Part shown: in pieces, positions 4,915 through 46,237 of the stretch | Layout of the letters: each line of letters starts with the position of its first letter | Numbering within the stretch: position 1 is the first letter of the stretch | NCBI GenBank assembly: GCA_020635175.1 | Contig: JACKAH010000003.1 | Location: 67,190-131,189 of the forward strand | DNA from: Deltaproteobacteria bacterium | GTDB lineage: Bacteria > Bdellovibrionota_C > UBA2361 > J135 | DNA length: 64,000 nt | Reading direction: 5' to 3' | The notes under the pieces: generated by a model | What the model saw: only the letters and a program-made list of their open reading frames with translations | Database searches by the model: none | What the model was told of the DNA's origin: nothing | Made by a program: the position numbers and the translations under genes

Positions 4915-5484
4915 ATGGAAAGATTAGAGAAACATTACCAAGAAAACGTTATTGCAAAGCTTAAAGAGAAGTTTCAGTACTCCTCTGCAATGCAAATCCC
5001 AAAAGTTAAGAAGGTAGTACTTAACATGGGACTTGGCGAAGCAATTCAGAACAACAAATCACTTGAGTATGCTGAATATGCATTGACTCAGATCTCAGGA
5101 CAGAAGCCAGTCTTTACTAAGGCTAAGAAGGCGATTGCTAACTTTAAACTTAGAGAGGGGATTCCTATCGGCTGTATGGTTACTTTACGTGGCAAGCGTA
5201 TGTATGAGTTCATGGATAGACTCATTTCAGTAGCATTACCACGTGTAAAGGACTTCAGAGGTGTCTCTGCAAAAGGATTTGATGGACGTGGAAATTACTC
5301 AATGGGTATTAAGGAGCAGATCGTGTTTCCTGAAGTTAACCTTGAGAAGCTCGATAAGGTTAGAGGTTTAAATATCTCTTTTGTTACGAGTGCAACCACA
5401 GATGAAGAGGGGCGCGAGCTTTTAAGAGAGCTTGGAATCCCATTTAAGAAGGCAAATAAGCCAAAAGAAGCTCACGAAGCTTAA
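4915..5484 (+). CDS. rplE: 50S ribosomal protein L5
   Basis: [16 protein letters not shown] motif; operon position. Confidence 0.96.
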
Positions 5485-5513
5485 AATTTATAAGATTGAG
5501 GAGAGAGTAAGGG

Positions 5514-5699
5514 ATGGCAAAGAAATGTTTACTTCATAAGCAACAGCAAAAACCAAAATTTGCTGTACGTGGCTACACACGTTGTCAACGTTGTGGTCGC
5601 CCACGTTCTGTATTTAGAAAGTTTATGTTGTGTAGAATTTGTTTCAGACAGTGTGCACATCAAGGACTTATCCCTGGTGTAACTAAAGCAAGTTGGTAG
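5514..5699 (+). CDS. rpsN: 30S ribosomal protein S14, short zinc-binding type (type Z)
   Basis: 61 aa, CQRCGRP ... CRIC four-Cys pattern; lies between L5 and S8. Confidence 0.93.
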
Positions 5700-7853: not shown

Positions 7854-8339
7854 ATGGATTTATCAAAACTTGCACCAAATAAAGGAGCGCGTAAGAACCG
7901 TAAGCGTGTTGGACGCGGAAAGGGTTCTGGCTGGGGAGAAACAGCAGGACGTGGTGTGAAAGGACAAACAAGTCGTAGTGGTTCTTCAATTCCTGCCGGA
8001 TTTGAAGGTGGACAGATGCCACTTTACCGAAGAATCCCGAAGTCAGGTTTCCGTTCACGAGTAGACGTATTAGGTCACAACCGTTACAACATCTTTACGT
8101 TGTCAGACCTTAACAGATTTGCAGATGGCGATGTAGTTAACATTGAATCACTAAAGGAAAAAGGCTTTACGATTCGACGTCGTTCGCAAGCTGGAGTTAA
8201 AGTTCTTGGTAGTGGTGAGCTTACTGCTAAGAATCTAAAAGTTACTGTTAACTCAATTACTAAGTCTGCAAAGGAAAAGATCGAAGCTGCAGGTGGTTCA
8301 GTAGAGATTGTTGCTACTGAAGAAGCATCTCAAAATTAG
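7854..8339 (+). CDS. rplO: 50S ribosomal protein L15
   Basis: KRVGRGKGSGWGETAGRGVKGQ motif. Confidence 0.96.
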   Translation: MDLSKLAPNKGARKNRKRVGRGKGSGWGETAGRGVKGQTSRSGSSIPAGFEGGQMPLYRRIPKSGFRSRVDVLGHNRYNIFTLSDLNRFADGDVVNIESLKEKGFTIRRRSQAGVKVLGSGELTAKNLKVTVNSITKSAKEKIEAAGGSVEIVATEEASQN

Positions 8340-8426
8340 TTTACGAGTCTTTTCCGTTTTATCTGTCTGCGGTTTGATCCGCTCAGAGTTGGCTTGGCAC
8401 TTCATTTTAAATAGGAAAGACCAGAC

Positions 8427-9767
8427 ATGATCCCAGGTATGCAAGGTATCGGAAAAATTCCTGAATTAAGGAAGAGGATTTTCTTTACTTTATGGATGCT
8501 CGCTGTTTATCGCTTTGGAGTTTTTGTATCAACTCCAGGTATTGATGTTGAAGCATTGAGACAGCAGTTTGCGACTGGTGATGGGACACTTTTTGGCCTG
8601 GTAAACATGTTCTCAGGTGGTGCATTAGAGCAATTCTCGATCTTCACCCTTGGTATCATGCCGTACATCAGCGTCTCGATTATTATGCAGCTTCTAACGT
8701 CAAGTATTCCTGCGCTTGAAGCGTTGAAGAAAGATGGTGAGGCAGGACAACGTGTGATTACTCGTTATACACGTCAAGGAACAGTTGTTTTAGCTCTGTT
8801 TCAAGGATTTATGATCGCTGTCGGTTTAGAGGGACAGGGATTAGTGCTAAGTCCTGGTTGGATGTTTCGAATCACTACAATGATTACCTTAACTGCAGGT
8901 ACATCATTTATCATGTGGTTAGGCGAGCAGATTAATGAGAAGGGAATTGGTAACGGTATGAGTATCGTTATCTTTGCTGGTATTGTTGCTCGTATGCCTC
9001 AGACTTTTGTTTCAACTTTAGTCTTAGCACGCAGCCAAGAAGTTGCTCCACTTACAATTTTAATTGTGATTGCATTCTGTATTGCAACTGTTGCTGGAAT
9101 TGTTTTTGTTGAGCGTTCTCACAGAAAAATTCCTATTCAGTATCCAAGACGAATGGTTGGTAAAAAAATGTCTCAAGCACAGACACAACACATGCCACTA
9201 AAAGTAAACATGGCTGGTGTGATTCCTCCGATCTTTGCTTCAGCATTCTTACTTTTACCCGCGACTGTTGCCTCAGTAACAACTAATGAAACCTTAGCTG
9301 AAATGATGCAGTACCTTGTGCCAGGATCATGGGTTTACACAGTTATCTTTGCAGGTTTGATCATCTTCTTTGCATTCTTTTATACAGCGATGATCTTTAA
9401 TCCACCTGAAGTTGCTGAGAACTTAAAAAAGAATGGCGGATTTGTTCCAACTGTTAGACCTGGAAAAGCAACAGCTGATTTTCTTTATGGTGTACTAAAC
9501 AGATTGACACTTTGGGGATCTATTTATATCGCAGCAATTTGTTTAATTCCTCAGATCTTCTACATGAAGATGGGATTAACAACATTTGCTTACATTTTTG
9601 GTGGAACATCAATTTTAATCGCGGTTGGTGTTATCCTTGATACAGTTTCGCAAATTGAATCACACATCGTTGCTCGTAACTACGAAGAGTTCATGGGCAA
9701 GACTTCGAAAGCCAAAGGTGGAGTAGGTTCGATGGGATATTCTCGCTCGAGATTACTTCGACGTTAA
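8427..9767 (+). CDS. secY: Preprotein translocase subunit SecY
   Basis: 446 aa polytopic membrane protein after rplO; GIMPYISVSIIMQLL motif. Confidence 0.96.
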   Translation: MIPGMQGIGKIPELRKRIFFTLWMLAVYRFGVFVSTPGIDVEALRQQFATGDGTLFGLVNMFSGGALEQFSIFTLGIMPYISVSIIMQLLTSSIPALEALKKDGEAGQRVITRYTRQGTVVLALFQGFMIAVGLEGQGLVLSPGWMFRITTMITLTAGTSFIMWLGEQINEKGIGNGMSIVIFAGIVARMPQTFVSTLVLARSQEVAPLTILIVIAFCIATVAGIVFVERSHRKIPIQYPRRMVGKKMSQAQTQHMPLKVNMAGVIPPIFASAFLLLPATVASVTTNETLAEMMQYLVPGSWVYTVIFAGLIIFFAFFYTAMIFNPPEVAENLKKNGGFVPTVRPGKATADFLYGVLNRLTLWGSIYIAAICLIPQIFYMKMGLTTFAYIFGGTSILIAVGVILDTVSQIESHIVARNYEEFMGKTSKAKGGVGSMGYSRSRLLRR

Positions 9768-9785
9768 TTATCAGAGGAGCGAGTA

Positions 9786-10349
9786 ATGATACGACTTATA
9801 CTTCTTGGAGCGCCTGGTGCAGGAAAAGGTACCCAAGCAGAGCGTGTTGCAGATACTTATTCTATCCCTCATATCTCAACCGGCGACATTATGCGTAAAG
9901 CGGTAGCCGATCAGAGCAAGCTCGGTGCACAAGTTAAAGAGTATCTTGATGCTGGCCAGCTTGTTCCGGATGAGCTTGTCATCAATCTGATTCGTGAAAG
10001 ACTTTCTAGTGATGATTGCGCAGAGGGCTTCTTGCTCGATGGCTTCCCACGAACTGTAGCTCAAGCAGAAGCGCTTGATAGGACTTTAAGTGAGTTGAAT
10101 GCACCACTAACTCATGTCCTTGAACTGGATGTGCCTGAGCAGATGTTGATTGAGAGACTGGTCAAACGTGGAGAAGAGTCTGGTCGCAGTGATGACACTG
10201 AGGAGGTGATTCGTGAGCGCCTGGCTGTATATAACGAGCAGACTGCACCAGTATCTGATTTTTACAGTAAATCCAGTAGGTTAGTTAAGATTGACGGTAC
10301 TGGATCAATTGATCAGATTGAGCAAGCTATCAAAGAGAAATTAAATTGA
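9786..10349 (+). CDS. adk: Adenylate kinase (short form, no zinc-finger lid)
   Basis: GAPGAGKGTQA P-loop, LLDGFPRT motif. Confidence 0.95.
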   Translation: MIRLILLGAPGAGKGTQAERVADTYSIPHISTGDIMRKAVADQSKLGAQVKEYLDAGQLVPDELVINLIRERLSSDDCAEGFLLDGFPRTVAQAEALDRTLSELNAPLTHVLELDVPEQMLIERLVKRGEESGRSDDTEEVIRERLAVYNEQTAPVSDFYSKSSRLVKIDGTGSIDQIEQAIKEKLN

Positions 10350-10450
10350 AATAGCTCAATATTTTCTAGGTAGTTAGCTTGAGATCAAGCAGTGAAATGT
10401 GTATCATCACGAACTCTCAACAGAATTTTAAGTTTGAGAGCAAAATATGT

Positions 10451-10516
10451 CGTGTCTTTAGGTACTTCCATGGATGATGGAGAGTAGTATGACACGTCTA
10501 TTTTTTATTTTTGGTA
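10451..10516 (+). terminator. Hairpin plus T-tract between adk and map (possible intrinsic terminator or attenuator)
   Basis: cgtgtc (10451-10456) pairs with gacacg (10491-10496), with an inner tacttccat/atggagagta stem, followed by tctattttttattttt. Confidence 0.45.
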
Positions 10517-10546
10517 AATAGAAGTTTTTTATTTTTTGTTTTTCTT

Positions 10547-11320
10547 ATGGGAGTGACATTAAAGTCAGAGCAAGAGATCGCTTCCATGAGAAAAGCAAAT
10601 CAGGTTGTCGCACAGGTTTTGCGTGAACTTGAACAGTTAGTTGCTCCTGGAGTAACTACTGAGCAACTGGACAAGCGCGCTGAGGAACTTACAAAAGAAC
10701 TTGGAGCAGAGGCAGCTTTTTTAAACTACCCATCAGGTTCAACAAGTGTTCCTCCATTTTCAGGGCACATTTGTGCTTCTGTAAATGATGCAGTTGTTCA
10801 CGGTCTGCCAAGTAAGCGGCCTTTAGTCGAAGGCGATATTATTAGCATCGACTACGGAGCTAAGGTTGATGGCTTCTACGGCGACTCTGCAATAACTGTA
10901 GCTGTAGGAGAGGTAGCACCGCAAGTAAAAAAATTGATTAGTGTTACCGAACAAGCTTTGTACGCAGGAATTGAAAAGTGCGTAGCAGGAAATAGAATTG
11001 GCGACGTCTCTTATGCCATACAAAGCTTAGTTGAGAAGAACGGTTTTGGAATTGTGAAAGACTTTGTGGGACATGGGATCGGAACGAAGATGCATGAAGA
11101 TCCTCAGGTTCCAAACTATGGTAAGCCAAACAAAGGCAAGAAGCTTGAAGTTGGTTTAGTCATAGCAATTGAGCCGATGGTTTCGCAGGGTAAACCGGCT
11201 GTGAAACTTTTAGAAGATGGCTGGACAGCGGTGTTAGCAGATGGAACTTATGCTGCTCATATTGAACACACTGTTGCTGTTACCAGTCGTGGACCGGAGA
11301 TTTTAAGCTCACGTAAGTGA
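10547..11320 (+). CDS. map: Methionine aminopeptidase type I
   Basis: Map-like MGVTLKSEQEIASMRKA N-terminus and HGIG metal-ligand region. Start moved to in-frame ATG 10547; the track start 10511 (TTG) adds a Phe-rich peptide encoded by the T-tract. Confidence 0.93.
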   Translation: MGVTLKSEQEIASMRKANQVVAQVLRELEQLVAPGVTTEQLDKRAEELTKELGAEAAFLNYPSGSTSVPPFSGHICASVNDAVVHGLPSKRPLVEGDIISIDYGAKVDGFYGDSAITVAVGEVAPQVKKLISVTEQALYAGIEKCVAGNRIGDVSYAIQSLVEKNGFGIVKDFVGHGIGTKMHEDPQVPNYGKPNKGKKLEVGLVIAIEPMVSQGKPAVKLLEDGWTAVLADGTYAAHIEHTVAVTSRGPEILSSRK

Positions 11321-11338
11321 GAGACGAGGAGATAAAAA

Positions 11339-11455
11339 GTGAAAGTTCGAGCATCAGTAAAACCGATCTGTGATTACTGCAAAGTGATCAAAAGAAAGGG
11401 AGTTGTCTACGTAATTTGTAGCAGAACACCTAAACATAAGCAGAGACAAGGATAA
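11339..11455 (+). CDS. rpmJ: 50S ribosomal protein L36 (below the ORF-track size cutoff)
   Basis: Hand translation from GTG 11339 gives [38 protein letters not shown], with a C-C-C-H zinc pattern, immediately before rpsM. Confidence 0.93.
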
Positions 11456-11467
11456 GAGAGGAAGAGA

Positions 11468-11839
11468 ATGTCAGTACGTATTGCCGGAGTAGTTCTTCCA
11501 CGTAACAAGCGAATAGTTCGTGGCCTTACATACATTTATGGGATTGGACTAACTAAGTCCCAGAAGATTTTATCTGAAGCTGGAATCGATTTTAGCACTC
11601 GAACAGACGATCTTACAGACGATCAGCTTGCTAAGATTCGTTCAATTATTGAAGGACGCGAGAAGGTAGAAGGAGATCTTCGTCGTGAAGTTTCAATGAA
11701 CATTAAGCGCCTGATGGATCTAGGATGTTACCGTGGATTGCGCCACAGAAAAGGTCTTCCAGTAAGAGGACAAAGAACCCAAACAAATGCGCGCACACGT
11801 AAGGGTCCAAAGAAAATGGCAGCAACTAAGAAGAAGTAA
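11468..11839 (+). CDS. rpsM: 30S ribosomal protein S13
   Basis: [14 protein letters not shown] ... YIYGIG motif. Confidence 0.96.
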
Positions 11840-11862
11840 TTTTTTAAGATAAGGATACTAAG

Positions 11863-12264
11863 GTGGCTACTGACGCTAAGGCAAAAAAAGAGACTAAGAA
11901 GAAAAAAGCTAAAAAGAACGTCCCAGTTGGGATCGCTCATATTTACGCTACTTTTAACAATACAGTTGTTACAGTTACTGACATGACTGGTAACACTATC
12001 AGTTGGTCTAGTGCTGGCTGTGGTGGATTCAAGGGTTCACGTAAATCAACACCATTCGCTGCACAGGTAGCAGCTGAGACTGCTGCACGAAAGGCTATGG
12101 AAAACGGTATGAGAACAGTAAGCGTTCTTATTCGTGGACCAGGAGCAGGACGTGAGTCAGCATTAAGAGCTTTACATGCCGCAGGGTTGAATATCTCTAC
12201 AATCAAGGACATTACATCTGTCCCTCATAATGGCTGTAGAGCACCTAAGAGACGTAGAGTATAA
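11863..12264 (+). CDS. rpsK: 30S ribosomal protein S11
   Basis: [18 protein letters not shown] motif; GTG start. Confidence 0.95.
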
Positions 12265-12288
12265 GTTTGCATAGAGGAACAAAGGACA

Positions 12289-12915
12289 ATGGCGAGATAT
12301 AGAGGACCTGTTTGTAGAATGTGTCGTGTAGAAAGAGAGAAGCTCTTTCTAAAAGGTGAACGTTGCTTTACTAGCAAATGTGCAATTGAGCGTCGTGAAG
12401 GAACGCCTGGTCAGCACGGCAAGAAAAGAAGTAAATTCTCTGAATATAAAACTCAGCTTCGTGAAAAGCAGAAGGTTAAGAGAATCTACGGCCTTGGCGA
12501 GAAACAGTTCAGAGCGAACTTCGTTAAATCAGCTAAGACTAAGGGCGTAACTGGTACTGAGATGTTACTCAGCTTAGAGCGAAGACTTGATAACATGGTC
12601 TATCGAATTGGATTTGGAACTTCAAGAAATCATTCTCGCCAAGTAGTTAAGCACGGCATGGTTCTTGTAAATGGAAAGCGTGTAAACATTCCATCATACA
12701 AAGTGTCAGTTGGAGATGTGATTGAAATTCGAGAGAAGAGTAAGACAGGAATTGCATTGAAGGCGGCTATGGAGTTTGCACAAAGCAGAAGTATTCCTGA
12801 ATGGATAACTTTAGATAGAGAAGCTATGAGAGGAACAGTTAACGCTTTACCATCTAGGGAGCAGTTAACTCAGCCAATTAATGAACAGTTAATTGTGGAA
12901 TTGTATTCTAAGTAA
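12289..12915 (+). CDS. rpsD: 30S ribosomal protein S4
   Basis: MARYRGPVCRMCR N-terminus, S4 domain. Confidence 0.96.
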   Translation: MARYRGPVCRMCRVEREKLFLKGERCFTSKCAIERREGTPGQHGKKRSKFSEYKTQLREKQKVKRIYGLGEKQFRANFVKSAKTKGVTGTEMLLSLERRLDNMVYRIGFGTSRNHSRQVVKHGMVLVNGKRVNIPSYKVSVGDVIEIREKSKTGIALKAAMEFAQSRSIPEWITLDREAMRGTVNALPSREQLTQPINEQLIVELYSK

Positions 12916-12951
12916 CCTAGATAAATTTTTACTTTTAAGCAGAGGAATCCT

Positions 12952-13980
12952 ATGCGTCGCACATCATTAAAGGACATCATTAAGCCAAGAAGAATTGAGA
13001 TCGAAACAAAGACGCTTGATGATCGTTATGGGAAATTTGTTGCTGAGCCATTAGAAAGAGGCTTCGGCTTAACAATGGGTAATGCGCTCCGTAGAATTTT
13101 GCTTTCATCACTTCAAGGCTGCGCGATTACATCAATTGTAATTGAGAATGTCATGCATGAGTTCTCTACAATTCCTGGAGTTAAGGAAGACGTAACTGAG
13201 ATCGTGCTTAACTTCAAAAATGTTGTTCTCAACATGGAAGAGAAGAACGAAGGTCGTGTTCGTATCGATGTTGAAGGACCTTGCGAAGTTAAAGCTGGAA
13301 TGATTGCAGGTGATCCTGCAGTTACAATTGTTAACCCAGATGCACATATCTGTACTCTAAGTGAAGGGTCAAAGCTTAACGTTGAGATTATCGTTAAGAA
13401 AGGTCGTGGCTATGTTCCTTCTGAAAGAAACAAAGAGGAAGAAGCTCCAATTGGAACAATTTACCTAGATTCTATCTTTTCCCCAATTCGTAAAATCAAT
13501 CACTTTGTAACCAACGCTCGTGTTGGACAAAGAACTGACTACGACAAGTTAACTATGGAACTTTGGACAGATGGTAGCATCGATCCAAGAACAGCAATTG
13601 CAGAAGCTGCGCATATTCTTAGAGATCAATTAGGACTATTCGTTGGTGAGTATATCGTTGAAGATGTACAGGAAGAAGAGAAAGTAGAACCAACTGAACA
13701 GTTCAACCAAAATCTATTTAGAAGAATTGAAGAACTCGAACTCAGTGTTCGTAGCGCAAACTGCTTAGAAAATGCTGACATTAAGTTTATTGGTGAGCTA
13801 GTCCAAAGAACAGAAGCAGAGATGCTTCGTACTAAGAACTTTGGTCGTAAGTCACTAAATGAGATCAAAGAAATTTTAACCGGAATGGGATTAAACCTAG
13901 GGTACAAAATTGAGAACTTTCCTTCTCGTGAAGAGCTTGAGTCTCGTGCACGTGAAGTAGCTCTTGATCCAGGTTTATAA
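12952..13980 (+). CDS. rpoA: DNA-directed RNA polymerase subunit alpha
   Basis: 342 aa; [11 protein letters not shown] motif and C-terminal [14 protein letters not shown] motif. Confidence 0.97.
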
Positions 13981-39796: not shown

Positions 39797-41041
39797 ATGG
39801 AAAGGGTAGCAATAATCGGCGGAACTCGAACCCCATTTGTTAAAGCTGGCAGTGCGTTTGCAAAACATACAGCTTTAGATATGGCTAAGCATTCAGTTAC
39901 AAGTCTTGTTAAAAAGTTAGAACTTAAACCAGATGGTATTGATGAGTTGATCTATAGCTCTGTGCTGCTTGATCCACGTTTGCCAAACTTTGCGCGTGAA
40001 ATTGTCCTACGGACAGATCTGCCAAACAGCATTAATGCGCACTTTGTATCTAACAACTGTATTAGTGGTTTAGTTGCACTAAACTTTCTTTCTGATGGAA
40101 TTAAAACTGGAAGGATAAAGTGCGGAATTGGTGGAGGTGTAGAGAGTATGTCACTTCCAACTCTGACCATGAACCCAAAAGGGGAGCGTTGGTTTATTAA
40201 TCTATCTAGAGCTAGAAGCATGGGACAGAAGTTGAGCTTGCTTGCAAAATTTCGTCCTGGATTTTTAGCACCGAGACCTCCTAGTCCTAAAGAGCCATCT
40301 ACAGGCCTTACTATGGGGCAGCATATGGAGATCACTGCACAGAAGTTAGCAATTCCTAGAGCTGAGCAAGATAAGATTGCATACAATAGTCATATCAATG
40401 CAGCCCAGGCACAAAGCTCTAATTTCTTAGCAGAGGAGATCTCTGCCTTAGATGGAGTTGCGCAGGATAATATTATTCGAGCAAATACTTCGATTGAAAA
40501 ACTGGCTACGTTAAAACCGGTCTTTGAACGAAGTGACAAGGGTACACTCACGGCTGGTAATTCAAGTCCACTAACGGATGGAGCTTCTGCCGTTTGTTTG
40601 ATGTCTGAATCAAGGGCAAAGGCTGAAGGTCGTAAGATTTTGGCCTTCATTGAGGCGATTGAATTCTCGGCAGTTGATCCAAATGATGGATTATTGATGG
40701 CCCCGGCTTTGGCTTTGCCGAGATTGCTTAGAAACAATAACTTAAAAGTTTCTGATATCGACCTTTTTGAAATTCATGAGGCATTTGCTGCTCAGGTCCT
40801 AGCTAACATGCAAGCATGGGAGCAGGGTTTTTTAGGAGAAGCGCCTATCGGTCGTTTGGATCAATCTAAAGTCAATATTAATGGTGGTTCTATCGCTATT
40901 GGCCATCCGTTCGCTGCAACAGGTGGCAGACTAATTACTTCTTTAGCTCATTCCCTTCAGAGAAATGGGGCTGATAGAGGGGTGATAAGCGTCTGTGCAG
41001 CCGGTGCCATGGCTGCTGCCGTATTATTATCAAAAGAATAA
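39797..41041 (+). CDS. Acetyl-CoA acetyltransferase / 3-ketoacyl-CoA thiolase
   Basis: Thiolase motifs NNCISGL (active Cys), NGGSIAIGHPFAATGGRL, C-terminal VCAAGAM. Confidence 0.9.
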   Translation: MERVAIIGGTRTPFVKAGSAFAKHTALDMAKHSVTSLVKKLELKPDGIDELIYSSVLLDPRLPNFAREIVLRTDLPNSINAHFVSNNCISGLVALNFLSDGIKTGRIKCGIGGGVESMSLPTLTMNPKGERWFINLSRARSMGQKLSLLAKFRPGFLAPRPPSPKEPSTGLTMGQHMEITAQKLAIPRAEQDKIAYNSHINAAQAQSSNFLAEEISALDGVAQDNIIRANTSIEKLATLKPVFERSDKGTLTAGNSSPLTDGASAVCLMSESRAKAEGRKILAFIEAIEFSAVDPNDGLLMAPALALPRLLRNNNLKVSDIDLFEIHEAFAAQVLANMQAWEQGFLGEAPIGRLDQSKVNINGGSIAIGHPFAATGGRLITSLAHSLQRNGADRGVISVCAAGAMAAAVLLSKE

Positions 41042-41051
41042 ATCTCTCATA

Positions 41052-41098
41052 AAAGGGGACAGTTCCTATTTTGCTGAGAAATAGGAACTGTCCCCTTT
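41052..41098. terminator. Perfect 20-bp stem hairpin after the thiolase gene (bidirectional terminator-like)
   Basis: aaaggggacagttcctattt-tgctgag-aaataggaactgtccccttt, with A/T runs on both flanks. Confidence 0.8.
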
Positions 41099-41227
41099 AA
41101 ATGGTGAGTGGGGGGATCTCCCATTGATGCTTGCTGCACCAGAGAGATCCCCCCACGTTGTTGTTCGCCACGAACCTTCGACCTCATCCCCCGCAGGGAG
41201 GATTCAGTCAGAAACCGCAGAGAGGGC

Positions 41228-42508
41228 TCAGGCCTGGGCGGGGTGCTCGCTCAGCGCAGACCGCACCTCGTCATCCGTGAGCATCCGGCCGACCTGCTGG
41301 GCTCGGCTGATCACTGCAGCGCAGGCCTCATCGCTCGGGACTTCGAGTCCGAGCTGACTCGCGAAGAAGCGCACGTTGCTCCTGCCGCTCATCGGCGTCA
41401 CCACGATCTCGTGATCGCGTCCGACCAGGGCAGCCGGCACACCGGAGTAGACCAGGTCACGTAGTTCGGGGTTGCCTGCCGCCTTGATGATCGCCGCGGC
41501 ATGCACGCCGGTGCCGGTCTTGAACGCGTCACCACCGATCACCGGCAAGCTGTGGGTGATCGGAACGCCGAGGATCCGGGAGGCAGTCTGGCAGTAGGTC
41601 TGCAGTCCGGTCAGCTCCCGCTCCCAGAACCCCATCAGCGCGAGGTTCGCCAGGAGCAGCTCGGTCTCCAGGTTGCCCGAGCGCTCACCGACACCGAGGG
41701 CGCAGCTGTGGATGCGGCTGGCTCCGCACTCGAGCGCCATCAGGGCGTTGGCCAGGGCCAGCCCACGATCGCGGTGACCGTGCCAGTCGATCTCGATGTC
41801 CTCGTAGCCATTGCGCTCGAGGAAGTTGATGACCCAGGCCATCAGGTTCCGGACACCGCGCGGACCGACCCGTCCACAGGTGTCACACAACACGAGTCGC
41901 TTGCAGCCGTTCTGGATCGCCGCGTTGAAGAGCACCTCCAGATCGCCGGGATGAGAGCCGGTGGTGTCCTCAGTGACGAAGGGGAGATCGACGTTGAGCA
42001 CCCGTGCGCTCTGCTGCGCATCGACGACCTGAGCGACGAGTCGGCTGAGATCCCAGTCCTCGACCTGCTGTCGGATGCGAGAAGAGCCGAGGAAGCCATA
42101 GCCCTGAAGTCTGATGCCGTGACGGTCCTGCAGCGCGGCGACGGTATCGACATGCTTGGCGAGCTGGAAGATGGCGAGGCCCGGCACGTGGGTCCATCCG
42201 GCACGCACATGCTCAGCGAGCAGCGCGCTGATAGCGACCGTGTTCGCGCCGTCGAGCCCATCGACGGGCAGCCCGTAGTCGACGGAGTGGATCCCGAGAC
42301 CCTCCATCAGGCCGAGAAGCTCGATGCGCTCAGCGACAGAAGGCATCGTGATGCTCGGGTTCTGGCAGCCGTCGCGGATCGTCTCCTCGAAGATCTCGAT
42401 AGATGGATCTTCGGCGAAGGTGACGAACCTTGGATCAGCAGGTTGCTTGCTGTCCCAGGGATAGATCAGATCTGCTGGTTGCAGACCGCTCAATCGGTCG
42501 TGAGTCAT
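41228..42508 (-). CDS. HMGL-like (2-isopropylmalate / homocitrate / citramalate synthase family) protein in a high-GC island
   Basis: EETIRDGCQNP (TLRDGxQ-like), DTCGR, HGHRDRGLALANALMAL and GVGERSGNLETE motifs; strongly G/C-biased third codon positions. Confidence 0.85.
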   Translation of the reverse strand: MTHDRLSGLQPADLIYPWDSKQPADPRFVTFAEDPSIEIFEETIRDGCQNPSITMPSVAERIELLGLMEGLGIHSVDYGLPVDGLDGANTVAISALLAEHVRAGWTHVPGLAIFQLAKHVDTVAALQDRHGIRLQGYGFLGSSRIRQQVEDWDLSRLVAQVVDAQQSARVLNVDLPFVTEDTTGSHPGDLEVLFNAAIQNGCKRLVLCDTCGRVGPRGVRNLMAWVINFLERNGYEDIEIDWHGHRDRGLALANALMALECGASRIHSCALGVGERSGNLETELLLANLALMGFWERELTGLQTYCQTASRILGVPITHSLPVIGGDAFKTGTGVHAAAIIKAAGNPELRDLVYSGVPAALVGRDHEIVVTPMSGRSNVRFFASQLGLEVPSDEACAAVISRAQQVGRMLTDDEVRSALSEHPAQA

Positions 42509-42899
42509 GGGAAGTGATACCTTCTCTCTCTGAAGGGGAAGCTAGGTGGGCACCTAGCGGGACGAAAAAACATAGGCGAAACGAACAATGGCTAATATAA
42601 ATCAGTAATAACCATCAATCGTTGCTCCTTTATCTTGGCGAACTACTCTCTAGATTTGGATTTTTAAAACAGTGGATAATATCCTTATTCCTTGCGCTGG
42701 ATCAAATTTATACCACTCTAAAGGTCTTAATATCTTTAGACATAGCGTGGATTTCAAAGAGAAATAGAGACTATTAATTCTCAGATAGCCTAGGCCGAAA
42801 ATCAGAAGGGAATATATAGCGATGAGGATTTTTGAGTCCCCGTGCTCTCCCGTACTACGTAAGCACTGAAGAACACGGGGTTATGTCAGAAATAATGGC

Positions 42900-43316
42900 T
42901 TAATAATATGGATCTTGGTTTTTGTTTGAACCGCGATCATCATAACGATCATATCCACCACGATTTCCAGAAGAGTCACTGTTTTGTTGACGTCTTAACT
43001 CTTCAAGCTCACGTCTTTGTCTCTGAAGCTCTTCATCTTGTCTTCTAAGTCTCTCTTCTTGTGAACGTGTTGTTTGCTCTTGCTTATCAGCTTGGCCACC
43101 AAGTAATCCTCCACCTAGTAAACCTGATGCAGCTCCAATTGCAATACCAGCTCCAGTGTGACCAGTCTCATGACCAATAATAGCTCCAAGACCTGCACCA
43201 AGTGCACCACCTGTTAGTGCGCCAGATTCGGTATTACTCATTTGGTTATTACCGGAACAACCGAGTATAAATAGTGAGAGTGCTATACTAGCAGTAAGTG
43301 TCACTGTGCATTTCAT
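42900..43316 (-). CDS. Glycine-zipper lipoprotein with a charged coiled-coil tail
   Basis: Lipobox LGCSG; GALTGGALGAGLGAIIG...GAASGLLGGGLLGG glycine zipper. Confidence 0.75.
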   Translation of the reverse strand: MKCTVTLTASIALSLFILGCSGNNQMSNTESGALTGGALGAGLGAIIGHETGHTGAGIAIGAASGLLGGGLLGGQADKQEQTTRSQEERLRRQDEELQRQRRELEELRRQQNSDSSGNRGGYDRYDDRGSNKNQDPYY

Positions 43317-43476
43317 TATTAGAAATCCTTAAAAATTTAAGAGTAAAAGTTCAGTATTAAGTATACATAAAGCACTAAAAAAATGACAATTAGAAGTAAA
43401 ATCTTCAAAAAAATACCCCTGTAACTTCCTGAAAATACATAGAAATTCAAAAAAATTCCAAATTCATGATTTTTTG

Positions 43477-43506
43477 CTCAAGAACGTAAAGTACCTGACC
43501 GTTACT
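43477..43506 (+). promoter_or_regulatory. Sigma-28 (FliA)-like promoter candidate for flagellin 1
   Basis: ctcaag-N16-ccgttact, repeated with identical spacing before flagellin 2; compare TAAA-N15-GCCGATAA. Confidence 0.55.
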
Positions 43507-43699
43507 CACATTAAGCGAGTTAGTTGTTGATGTTTTTGAGTGGTCTTGCGCATGGAAGCCAGCCGTACTTTTTCCTGCCTAAAGATCCCTTTTTTAAAAA
43601 ATGAATTTAGTCACAGCGGGTGTGTAACGACAACGCGAGGATGATTGTCAAATGGACTGACAATCTAACTAAATTCGTAACTTCACGGAGGAACGAAAA

Positions 43700-44560
43700 A
43701 TGCCTGTAACCTTAGGATCGAATATATTGTCCCTCAACTCCCAGAGGAGATTGAGTGAGACAACCGACAAGCTAGGGAGCATCTATGAGAAATTGAGTTC
43801 TGGTCAGAGAATCAGCCGAGCTCGAGACGATGGTGCCGGTCTAGCAATCGCAGAAAACCTTAAAGCTGACCAACGTATTGCTACCGTTGCGATAAGAAAC
43901 GCAAACGACGGTATCTCAATCGTTGCAATCACAGACTCAGCTCTTGAGCAGATTGGTAATACTCTTACCCGTCTAGCAGAGCTTGCTGAGCAGTCGGCAA
44001 ACGGTATCTTTACACCACAACAACGTTCAGCACTTCAGAACGAGTTCGTCGCTCTGAGTTCAGAAATTGAGCGTATTGCGGTAACAACAAATTTTAACGG
44101 AGTGGCACTGCTCTCTGGTAATGCGACTGTAGCGTTCCAGGTTGGTTTTGATAACCAATCAACATCGCTCATCTCGTATAACGGAGTGGCGGGTACGCTA
44201 GCCTCACTAGGGCTTGCTACAACTGGCTCATCCAATCTTAACTTTTCAATCAACGCCTCAACAGCTGCGGCTGGTCAGAGTGCTGCTCAAGCTGCTCTTC
44301 AAGCAGTTAAAGCGGCGATTTCATCTCTGAACACCAACCGTGGTACGCTTGGTGCGGCTGAAGCTCGACTAAACGTTGCTATTAGTAACCTATCTGTAGC
44401 ACGTGAGAACTTCGCAGCTGCGGAAAGCCGTATCCGAGATGTTGACGTAGCGCAAGCTGCTGCTGAATTGACAAGAATCTCGATTCTACAGCAGGCTGGA
44501 GCATCTGTGCTAGCACAGGCTAACCAGCAGCCGTCAATCGCGCTACAGCTACTAGGATAA
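43700..44560 (+). CDS. fliC: Flagellin (short, 286 aa, no large variable domain)
   Basis: LSSGQRISRARDDGAGLAIAENL N-terminal and ILQQAGASVLAQANQQPSIALQLL C-terminal flagellin motifs. Confidence 0.95.
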   Translation: MPVTLGSNILSLNSQRRLSETTDKLGSIYEKLSSGQRISRARDDGAGLAIAENLKADQRIATVAIRNANDGISIVAITDSALEQIGNTLTRLAELAEQSANGIFTPQQRSALQNEFVALSSEIERIAVTTNFNGVALLSGNATVAFQVGFDNQSTSLISYNGVAGTLASLGLATTGSSNLNFSINASTAAAGQSAAQAALQAVKAAISSLNTNRGTLGAAEARLNVAISNLSVARENFAAAESRIRDVDVAQAAAELTRISILQQAGASVLAQANQQPSIALQLLG

Positions 44561-45376: not shown

Positions 45377-46237
45377 ATGGCAGTTACCATTGGTAATAAC
45401 ATCGCGTCTCTGACAGCTCAACGAAGATTAGGATCTTCTACTGAAAAACTTCAGAGCACCTACGAAAAACTAAGCTCAGGTCAACGTATTAACAAAGCAT
45501 CAGACGATGCTGCGGGTTTAGCGATTGCAGACTCATTAAGAGCGGACTCGCGAATCGCCCAAGTGGCAATCCGTAATGCGAATGACGGTATATCAGTAAC
45601 GAACATCGCTGACTCAGCATTAGGTGAGATCGGTAACGTTCTTACTCGTATGGCGGAACTAGCTGAACAATCTGCAAACGGTGTACTTAGTGTAACTCAG
45701 CGTTCTGCGCTAGCTACTGAATTTGGTGCACTTGCTTCGGAAATCGAGCGTATCGCTGTTACAACTACGTTTAACGGTGTAAACTTGCTTTCTGGTGGAG
45801 CTAGTATTGCCTTCCAGGTAGGTTTCGATAGTCAGTCGACATCACAAATTTCATATAACGGAGTACAAGGAACTCTTGCAGCTTTAGGGCTTGCATCTTC
45901 AGGTTCTTCGTCTCTAAACTTTTCTATTAACGCTTCAACAGCTGCTGCAGGTCAAAGTGCCTCAGTGAACGCTCTTGATGCGGTTAAAGCAGCGATTAAC
46001 TCGCTTACTTCTACTCGAGGTACGCTAGGTGCTGCTTCTACTCGACTAAGTGTGGCAATCAACAACCTGACTGTTGCGAGAGAGAACTTCCTATCTGCGG
46101 AATCTCGAATTCGTGACGTAGACGTTGCTGCAGAAGCTGCTGAGTTAACACGACTCACAATTCTACAGCAGGCAGGTGCTGCGGTTCTGACTCAGGCGAA
46201 TCAGCAACCAACACTAGCATTGTCACTATTATCATAA
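45377..46237 (+). CDS. fliC: Flagellin paralog (286 aa)
   Basis: Colinear and gap-free with the first flagellin; same terminal flagellin motifs. Confidence 0.95.
   Translation: MAVTIGNNIASLTAQRRLGSSTEKLQSTYEKLSSGQRINKASDDAAGLAIADSLRADSRIAQVAIRNANDGISVTNIADSALGEIGNVLTRMAELAEQSANGVLSVTQRSALATEFGALASEIERIAVTTTFNGVNLLSGGASIAFQVGFDSQSTSQISYNGVQGTLAALGLASSGSSSLNFSINASTAAAGQSASVNALDAVKAAINSLTSTRGTLGAASTRLSVAINNLTVARENFLSAESRIRDVDVAAEAAELTRLTILQQAGAAVLTQANQQPTLALSLLS

Follow-up and report, generated by a model that had tools for sequence, protein, structure and literature searches.

How did a short segment with the composition of a GC-rich genome come to lie between two core genes of a bacterium with a much lower content of guanine plus cytosine (GC)? 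The question is raised by a 64,000-nt stretch of contig JACKAH010000003.1 (hereafter the window), in which an island of ~1.5 kb carrying a single gene of the HMGL-like family separates a thiolase gene from a convergently oriented Gly-zipper gene. The host, a Bdellovibrionales-like bacterium of 42% GC, is known from a metagenome-assembled genome (MAG) alone, and the 64-kb window is core chromosome. The initial annotation had put forward two explanations, either a very recent transfer, in which a high-GC donor supplied a single gene to an intergenic site between convergent genes, or an assembly chimera. We favour the first. The island is most likely the product of a real horizontal transfer, in which ~1.47 kb from an unsampled bacterium of ~67% GC entered the convergent thiolase/Gly-zipper spacer; empty sites in relatives, the GC content of the codon positions and the absence of mobile parts all speak for it.

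Composition of the island

First, the island is set apart from its surroundings by composition. Positions 41101-42570 (1470 nt) are 63.7% GC, compared with 41.5 ± 1.7% (maximum 47.4%) in the other segments of that length (z ~13), and in 300-nt steps the GC fraction rises from 0.45 (40800-41099) to 0.64-0.67 (41100-42449) and falls to 0.38-0.43 past 42600. The tetranucleotide distance between island and host is 0.86, against 0.26 ± 0.03 for chunks of the host. Within the gene the GC fractions at codon positions 1, 2 and 3 are 0.69, 0.45 and 0.80, the last (GC3) being 0.33 ± 0.04 and at most 0.42 in the 34 other open reading frames (ORFs) of the window that reach 200 aa or more. The initial annotation had noted the strong G/C bias at third positions, and had supported the abrupt borders with hand counts (42, 27 and 23 G+C in 60 nt at 41221-41280, 40921-40980 and 42601-42660) that prove exact. 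The non-coding ends of the island are GC-rich as well, at 58% (0.581) for 41099-41227 and 53% (0.532) for 42509-42570, and five of the six neighbouring host intergenic regions have 28-43% GC.

Regression of codon-position GC on genome GC, with coefficients that reportedly go back to Muto & Osawa and to Lawrence & Ochman, implies a source genome of 68.2, 67.6 and 66.6% GC from positions 1, 2 and 3, respectively. The three values agree within sampling error (standard error of GC3 1.9%). Since all three positions point to ~67% GC, there is no detectable amelioration towards the host, and the long divergence of the protein described below must therefore have built up against a high-GC background, within the donor lineage and before the transfer. 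Two spurious long ORFs lie inside the gene because stop codons are scarce in GC-rich DNA, one antisense (41501-42517, plus strand, 338 aa) and one in another frame of the sense strand (41842-42261, minus strand, 139 aa).

The locus comprises the following features.

41228-42508, minus strand: putatively foreign gene encoding a 426-aa protein (MCB9029867.1), a LeuA/homocitrate-synthase-like DRE-TIM Claisen-condensing enzyme (PF00682)
41099-41227, minus strand: island 3' untranslated segment, 58% GC, with its own GC-rich hairpin at 41108-41156, from GC content and folding
42509-42570, minus strand: island 5' leader, 62 nt, 53% GC, with a ribosome-binding-site-like GAGAGAGAAGG and a near-palindrome GCTAGGTGGGCACCTAGC at 42541-42558
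41052-41098, no strand assigned: AT-rich host hairpin, likely a bidirectional terminator, with a 20-bp perfect stem (100% complementary) and a 7-nt loop
42571-42899, no strand assigned: AT-rich non-coding spacer, 329 nt, 38% GC, from the island to the Gly-zipper stop, no ORF above 56 aa
39797-41041, plus strand: acetyl-CoA C-acyltransferase (thiolase, MCB9029866.1), left core flank, with Pfam Thiolase_N and Thiolase_C and a GC3 of 0.33
42900-43316, minus strand: Gly-zipper (YMGG-like) lipoprotein-type gene, right core flank, matching Pfam Gly-zipper families

An empty site in relatives

Secondly, the insertion site is empty in relatives. Five relatives with contigs that span it, one a GTDB representative (L005) and four from JGI and Logan (L044-L047), keep the order thioredoxin, radical-SAM and thiolase genes, followed by the convergent Gly-zipper gene and flagellin. 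Between the thiolase stop and the Gly-zipper stop they have 85 (L005), 37 (L044), 70 (L045), 428 (L046) and 24 nt (L047), compared with 1858 nt in the window. No HMGL-like gene is present in any of the five gaps; a terminator-type hairpin is all that four of them contain. The insertion is therefore younger than the divergence from these relatives and specific to this lineage.

The same comparison bears on the proposal that the gene has long resided in the clade, its high GC content maintained for some other reason. The initial annotation had suggested looking in sister genomes for the same high-GC gene throughout the clade, and what is found is an empty site in five of five. The codon positions moreover fit a genome of ~67% GC and have not moved towards the GC3 of 33% seen in the host, and the non-coding ends are GC-rich; only the lack of a named donor speaks for long residence, which we find hardly credible.

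The transfer had also been called very recent. What stands of this is that no amelioration is detectable and that the event is later than the split from relatives with ~70% identical thiolases; nothing dates it more tightly. The thiolases of the five site-bearing relatives are 67-69% identical to that of the window, and no sister genome above 71% thiolase identity is present among GTDB representatives, JGI metagenomes or a set of 5.8 billion proteins.

The 428-nt gap of L046 (5182-5609) is 54% GC in a locus of 43% GC and is unrelated to the island. On its plus strand (5424-5554) lies a sub-threshold match resembling a c-di-AMP riboswitch (23.3 bits, gathering score 38). The thiolase/Gly-zipper spacer may have received insertions on more than one occasion.

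Junctions in independent assemblies

Thirdly, the right junction recurs in the Logan assemblies (k = 31) of runs SRR12358675 and SRR12358676, which are independent of the MAG assembly. Contigs L003 (SRR12358676) and L004 (SRR12358675) both start at 42498 and cross the AT-to-GC transition at ~42570, so that each carries 72 nt of GC-rich sequence, which takes in the whole 62-nt leader, the start codon ATG and the 8 nt after it. At the junction L003 matches the window exactly, with 8 further single-nucleotide polymorphisms (SNPs) elsewhere; L004 has a 1-nt deletion in the palindrome and one SNP within its first 110 nt, and then no mismatch over 9.6 kb. To the left, L001 has 2 mismatches to the window in 11.3 kb of flank. 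The near-identity of the flank contigs L001 and L004 places both flanks in the same genome.

These contigs weigh on the second explanation of the initial annotation, a chimera in which the MAG assembler spliced a high-GC fragment of another community member into the spacer. The origin of the sequence in a MAG, the breaks of the k = 31 assemblies at both borders with no recovery of the interior, and the variants within ~100 nt of the borders (an A/T SNP at 40999 in both left contigs, and the indel and SNP of L004) would fit such an event. Yet two independent contigs join the AT-rich flank to the GC-rich sequence up to and beyond the start codon. A chimera would need two misjoins, leaving and re-entering one genome at positions that are adjacent in five relatives, and would have to begin in frame 11 nt past an independently confirmed start codon, with that codon and the ribosome-binding-site-like motif in frame with a full-length, co-linear family member. 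We regard a chimera as very unlikely. The crossing of the right junction in assemblies of two runs largely excludes it; for the left junction the exclusion is not formal.

The insertion may be real and yet not fixed, with haplotypes that have the island, lack it or carry another allele, or a near-identical copy may reside in a co-resident organism. This is possible, if rather doubtful, and is compatible with a single-gene transfer. The start of both right contigs at 42498 in two runs fits a branch in the assembly graph better than random loss of coverage; the SNPs and indel at the borders set the MAG haplotype apart from the Logan contigs, although the two agree over kilobases of flank; and the 8 further SNPs of L003 imply more than one strain. 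However, no contig with an empty or alternative junction is recovered, and no protein above 46% identity is found in any source, Logan included. The left contigs, in addition, end at different positions (41065 and 41086) within a perfect hairpin, which low coverage or sequencing loss at hairpin and GC-rich sequence would explain equally well. Presence/absence or allelic polymorphism is one candidate cause of the breaks of both assemblies at both borders, at the same base on the right, alongside two other candidates, GC- or hairpin-dependent loss of coverage in a low-abundance genome and a near-identical copy elsewhere in the community.

Variants cluster near the island borders while kilobases of flank are identical, a hint of more than one haplotype at the locus. 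At position 40999, 42 nt before the thiolase stop, L001 and L002 both have T (synonymous) and the window has A.

Island ends and mobility signatures

Both ends of the island lie close to structured sequence. The host hairpin (41052-41098) folds on the minus strand and is followed there by UUUUAU; in relatives a short hairpin occupies the corresponding position. In the island hairpin (41108-41156) the 13-bp arms are 100% complementary and the stem extends to ~21 bp when folded. The coordinates first reported for the two hairpins are exact, and both pair perfectly (20-bp stem and 13-bp arms). On the sense strand of the gene the long GC-rich hairpin follows the stop codon and the host hairpin with its U-tract comes next, and the 196-nt region downstream of the gene that contains them folds at -103 kcal/mol (z = -8.6). 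Rfam families matched at a permissive threshold in 40800-43700 are hairpin-driven noise below their gathering scores.

At the other end the 62-nt leader forms a 7-bp hairpin in the fold. Its GCTAGGTGGGCACCTAGC (42541-42558) is a near-perfect 18-bp palindrome; in L004 (SRR12358675) a 1-nt deletion of G at the centre makes the arms perfectly symmetric. The element could be an operator, a hairpin or a sequencing artefact at an inverted repeat. In the AT-rich spacer beyond (42571-42899), two sigma-70-like matches on the minus strand (42757-42729 and 42705-42676) have the right orientation for the gene, and this spacer is, judging from these motifs, the likely source of its promoter. It has no counterpart in the relatives, no similarity to their gaps or to the rest of the window and no Rfam match, and could stem from the host itself, from an insertion together with the island or from an earlier insertion of which it is the remnant.

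Signatures of mobility are lacking, as the initial annotation had stated for integrase, tRNA and border repeats. There is no tRNA in the 64-kb window and no integrase or transposase within 10 kb on either side or among the part of the other window ORFs that was scanned. Flanking direct repeats, target-site duplications and terminal inverted repeats give chance-level matches only. Downstream of the gene neither attC core site (RYYYAAC or GTTRRRY) is found, and 40801-42900 has no pair at the proper spacing on either strand. On plasmids the best match is 36% identical, a gene of a Streptomyces megaplasmid beside an aconitase-family gene; nothing close is found on phages, and IMG/VR holds no family member. 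The locus thus has two marks of a classical genomic island, atypical composition and absence from relatives, and in the sequence scanned lacks three, an integrase, a tRNA target and direct repeats; the attC site and integrase of an integron cassette are likewise not found.

A dedicated mobile system that targets terminator hairpins (an integron, an element resembling an insertion sequence or a miniature inverted-repeat transposable element, a phage or a plasmid remnant) could nevertheless have delivered the cassette. Its layout, a single gene with a 3' hairpin adjoining a host terminator hairpin, and the unrelated 428-nt, 54%-GC segment in the same gap of L046 would suit such a system. The missing attC sites, the absence of terminal inverted or direct repeats beyond chance, the lack of integrase, transposase or tRNA in the regions just named, and the absence of family members from IMG/VR contigs and of close ones from plasmids and phages all argue against it, making this route extremely unlikely.

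By the preferred route, a single-gene transfer, the incoming fragment of ~1.47 kb would have brought a single gene together with its 62-nt leader and, on the 3' side, a tail of 129 nt with hairpin. It would have arrived after the split from the sampled relatives, its composition not having drifted to that of the host. By exclusion of other routes, the DNA would have been taken up and integrated through illegitimate or minimal-homology recombination, landing between two terminators, where insertions would be harmless. The gene would be transcribed from the AT-rich, host-like spacer at 42571-42899, with termination at the island hairpin and its host neighbour.

Homologues and the donor

The donor lineage was to be sought by homology search, according to the initial annotation; the search returns high-GC homologues, and none close enough to name a donor. 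Among 5.8 billion clustered proteins the best matches are 41-46% identical, and in an exhaustive HMMER pass over 1.84 billion representatives the best full-length match is 44% identical, leaving the island protein alone in its 50% cluster among ~15 billion proteins. As no homologue exceeds 46% identity, the donor is unsampled. The best matches are 'LeuA family proteins' of ~410 aa from Gemmatimonadota (Candidatus Palauibacter, Longimicrobiales), Thermoanaerobaculia and Planctomycetota, and the homologue loci that were fetched have 64-73% GC. In a tree with this short LeuA-like clade the island protein sits on a long isolated branch.

The island protein resembles the clade (for example P0035) in being alignable over its full length and co-linear (E ~1e-100, 41-46% identity), in an N-terminal LIYxW motif, in a hydrophobic residue where the RDGEQ motif has Glu, in the absence of a regulatory domain and in being encoded, like most members, by a stand-alone gene of high-GC origin. 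Unlike the members, which are 55-79% identical to each other across phyla, it is at most 46% identical to any of them and falls outside the clade at the level of orthologues.

No operon is conserved around the homologues, and their context points to no pathway. An NTP-transferase gene lies beside or near the LeuA-like gene in three Gemmatimonadota-type loci, with Iso_dh nearby in one; a divergent amino-acid kinase gene is seen at one locus of Planctomycetota, and P0244 is next to sugar-modifying genes. In L021 (8001-11027) and in L023 and L025 (6900-9300) the short LeuA-like gene follows the NTP-transferase gene directly or one gene apart. In the Gemmatimonadota-type loci Iso_dh is once two genes downstream, and a two-component regulator follows in two. 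The recurrent NTP-transferase neighbour may be a lead to the function of the short LeuA-like subfamily.

The predicted enzyme

The island protein has a sole Pfam domain, HMGL-like (PF00682; residues 37-296, 109.7 bits, cut-off 29). The initial annotation had recognised the family from the motifs IRDGCQNP, HGHRDRGLALAN and GVGERSGN, which are present at residues 44, 243 and 272, and had seen neither a LeuA-type regulatory domain nor pathway partners. Both absences hold: the protein ends at 426 aa with PF00682 only and no LeuA_dimer, and there is no gene of the leucine or lysine pathway, leuB and leuCD included, within 10 kb on either side or among the other large window ORFs that were scanned. 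Curated models for particular enzymes are not reached, with 91-132 bits for the LeuA equivalogs TIGR00973 and NF002084-88 (cut-offs 517-749), 129.7 and 124 bits for homocitrate synthase (HCS; TIGR02146 LysS, cut-off 413.55, and TIGR02660 NifV, 462.9) and 95.3 and 52.3 bits for citramalate synthase CimA (TIGR00977, 450, and NF042433, 950).

In the AlphaFold2 model (predicted local distance difference test score 91.8, predicted template-modelling score 0.90) strands and helices alternate as is typical of a TIM barrel, followed by C-terminal helices. Isopropylmalate synthases (IPMS), HCS and citramalate synthases are matched at probability 1.00. The best hits are MAM synthase and the catalytic domains of HCS and IPMS, with template-modelling (TM) scores of 0.79-0.85. 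The comparators are Brassica MAM synthase (6E1J), itself devoid of a regulatory domain, the Sulfolobus HCS catalytic domain (6KTQ), Thermus HCS (2ZTJ/3A9I), Neisseria and Mycobacterium IPMS (3RMJ/1SR9) and Leptospira citramalate synthase (3BLE). The likeness to these solved DRE-TIM enzymes lies in the barrel with C-terminal helical subdomains (TM 0.79-0.85 to 6E1J and 6KTQ) and in the metal and catalytic motifs, which are kept; the protein differs from them in its 17-25% sequence identity (~21% to the best structures), in scores below curated cut-offs and in having no LeuA_dimer/RAM domain. The modelled product is thus predicted to be a confidently folding stand-alone catalytic module of LeuA/homocitrate-synthase type, a TIM barrel with C-terminal helical subdomains.

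All 32 invariant columns of a 26-member family alignment are kept, including R45, G47, Q49, E180, D181, H243 and H245, as is the GERxGN motif (G274-E275-R276-x-G278-N279); D46 is invariant in a 56-member alignment. By alignment, the metal site is predicted to be D46, H243 and H245, with R45 as the putative substrate arginine. Cys48 replaces the Glu of the RDGEQ motif of LeuA and HCS, a position held by Leu in the short clade. In the HMMER alignment Arg133 and Ser135 of Thermus HCS correspond to Pro176 and Val178. Arg133 is what we take to be the arginine that binds the distal carboxylate of 2-oxoglutarate. On these residues, the most likely activity is the condensation of acetyl-CoA with a 2-oxoacid to a 2-substituted malate, free of feedback regulation; the 2-oxoacid is probably non-dicarboxylic, hence other than 2-oxoglutarate, and the nearest clade probably has a different specificity.

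Several points weigh against a recent transfer of a working gene. The sequence derives from a MAG; the Logan assemblies of the two runs reproduce neither the left junction nor the interior of the island, the left contigs ending inside the host hairpin (L001 at 41086, L002 at 41065), and the exact island protein is not on record in Logan. Timing is loosely bounded, the closest site-bearing relative being only 67-69% identical in the thiolase. No donor or near relative is available (at most 46% identity), so that direction and source of the transfer are read from composition alone. An intact ORF is weak evidence of selection in GC-rich DNA, as the 338-aa antisense ORF demonstrates. Finally, the protein differs at 43 of the 157 positions conserved at 90% or more in the nearest clade (27%), among them R114F, D119H and R184G; with these clade-conserved positions lost, it may be inactive or repurposed. 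Clade members themselves differ at a mean of 2.5% and a maximum of 12% of such positions.

Relation to known acquisitions

Horizontally acquired regions are known in Bdellovibrio-like organisms (Gophna 2006, Pan 2011 and Hobley 2012, as cited in PMC3539863; Bdellovibrio sp. NC01, PMC7137782). Such regions usually span several genes and 15 kb or more, their GC content is often lower, and 5 of 8 carry phage, integrase or plasmid genes (PMC3539863, PMC7137782). The present island resembles them in that foreign DNA is told by deviating GC and absence from related predators, in a Bdellovibrionales-like host. It is unlike them in comprising a single gene in 1.47 kb, in its much higher GC, in lacking a mobility gene and in its base-level borders between terminators. 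Horizontal acquisition in Bdellovibrio-like predators is thus already established, and the clean bounding and orphan donor are what is unusual here.

If the transfer is real, the locus would be a textbook-clean example of integrase-independent gain of a single gene, with near base-level borders, no amelioration and a site that was ancestrally empty, in a lineage whose uptake of foreign and possibly prey DNA has long been debated. An apparently recent arrival with no relative above 46% among ~15 billion proteins would point to an unsampled high-GC lineage, and the enzyme belongs to an uncharacterised, widespread subfamily of LeuA-like proteins devoid of a regulatory domain. The locus could serve as a curated case of horizontal gene transfer and as a caution on the validation of junctions in MAGs. 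A bolder combination, which we consider unlikely, is that a predatory Bdellovibrionota-like bacterium captured a single metabolic gene of an unsampled high-GC lineage, possibly its prey, without mobile machinery and beside a terminator hairpin, that the locus is still polymorphic and that the enzyme, having lost arginines which its family conserves, has a new 2-oxoacid specificity; if true, the captured enzyme would give the predator a new metabolic step.

Host locus and neighbouring genes

The island protein (MCB9029867.1) and the adjoining thiolase (MCB9029866.1) are recorded from one NCBI MAG, 'Deltaproteobacteria bacterium', on a contig of 141.7 kb. The window also encodes SecY, RpoA, ribosomal protein S1, MutS, an amidase, purH, purD, thioredoxin, two flagellins, an HDOD protein, a NadB-like flavoprotein, SMC and FtsY. 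An identical thiolase protein is found in the Logan assemblies of the two runs, and the gene is syntenic in the five relatives; the nearest thiolases, 67-71% identical, come from MAGs named Bdellovibrionales, Bdellovibrionota or Oligoflexia. The 90%-identity cluster of the thiolase is represented by an unrelated 48-aa peptide, a clustering artefact of the database that hides the self-match of the thiolase. Two short ENA peptides of this cluster (P0122 and P0123), considered as contig-edge fragments, are unrelated clustering noise.

To the right of the site lie tandem flagellin paralogues (43700-44560 and 45377-46237), where local GC reaches 0.54. Of the relatives whose contigs cover this part, L045 carries four flagellin genes in tandem here (8258-13056), compared with two in the window, and the flagellin neighbourhood thus varies in copy number.

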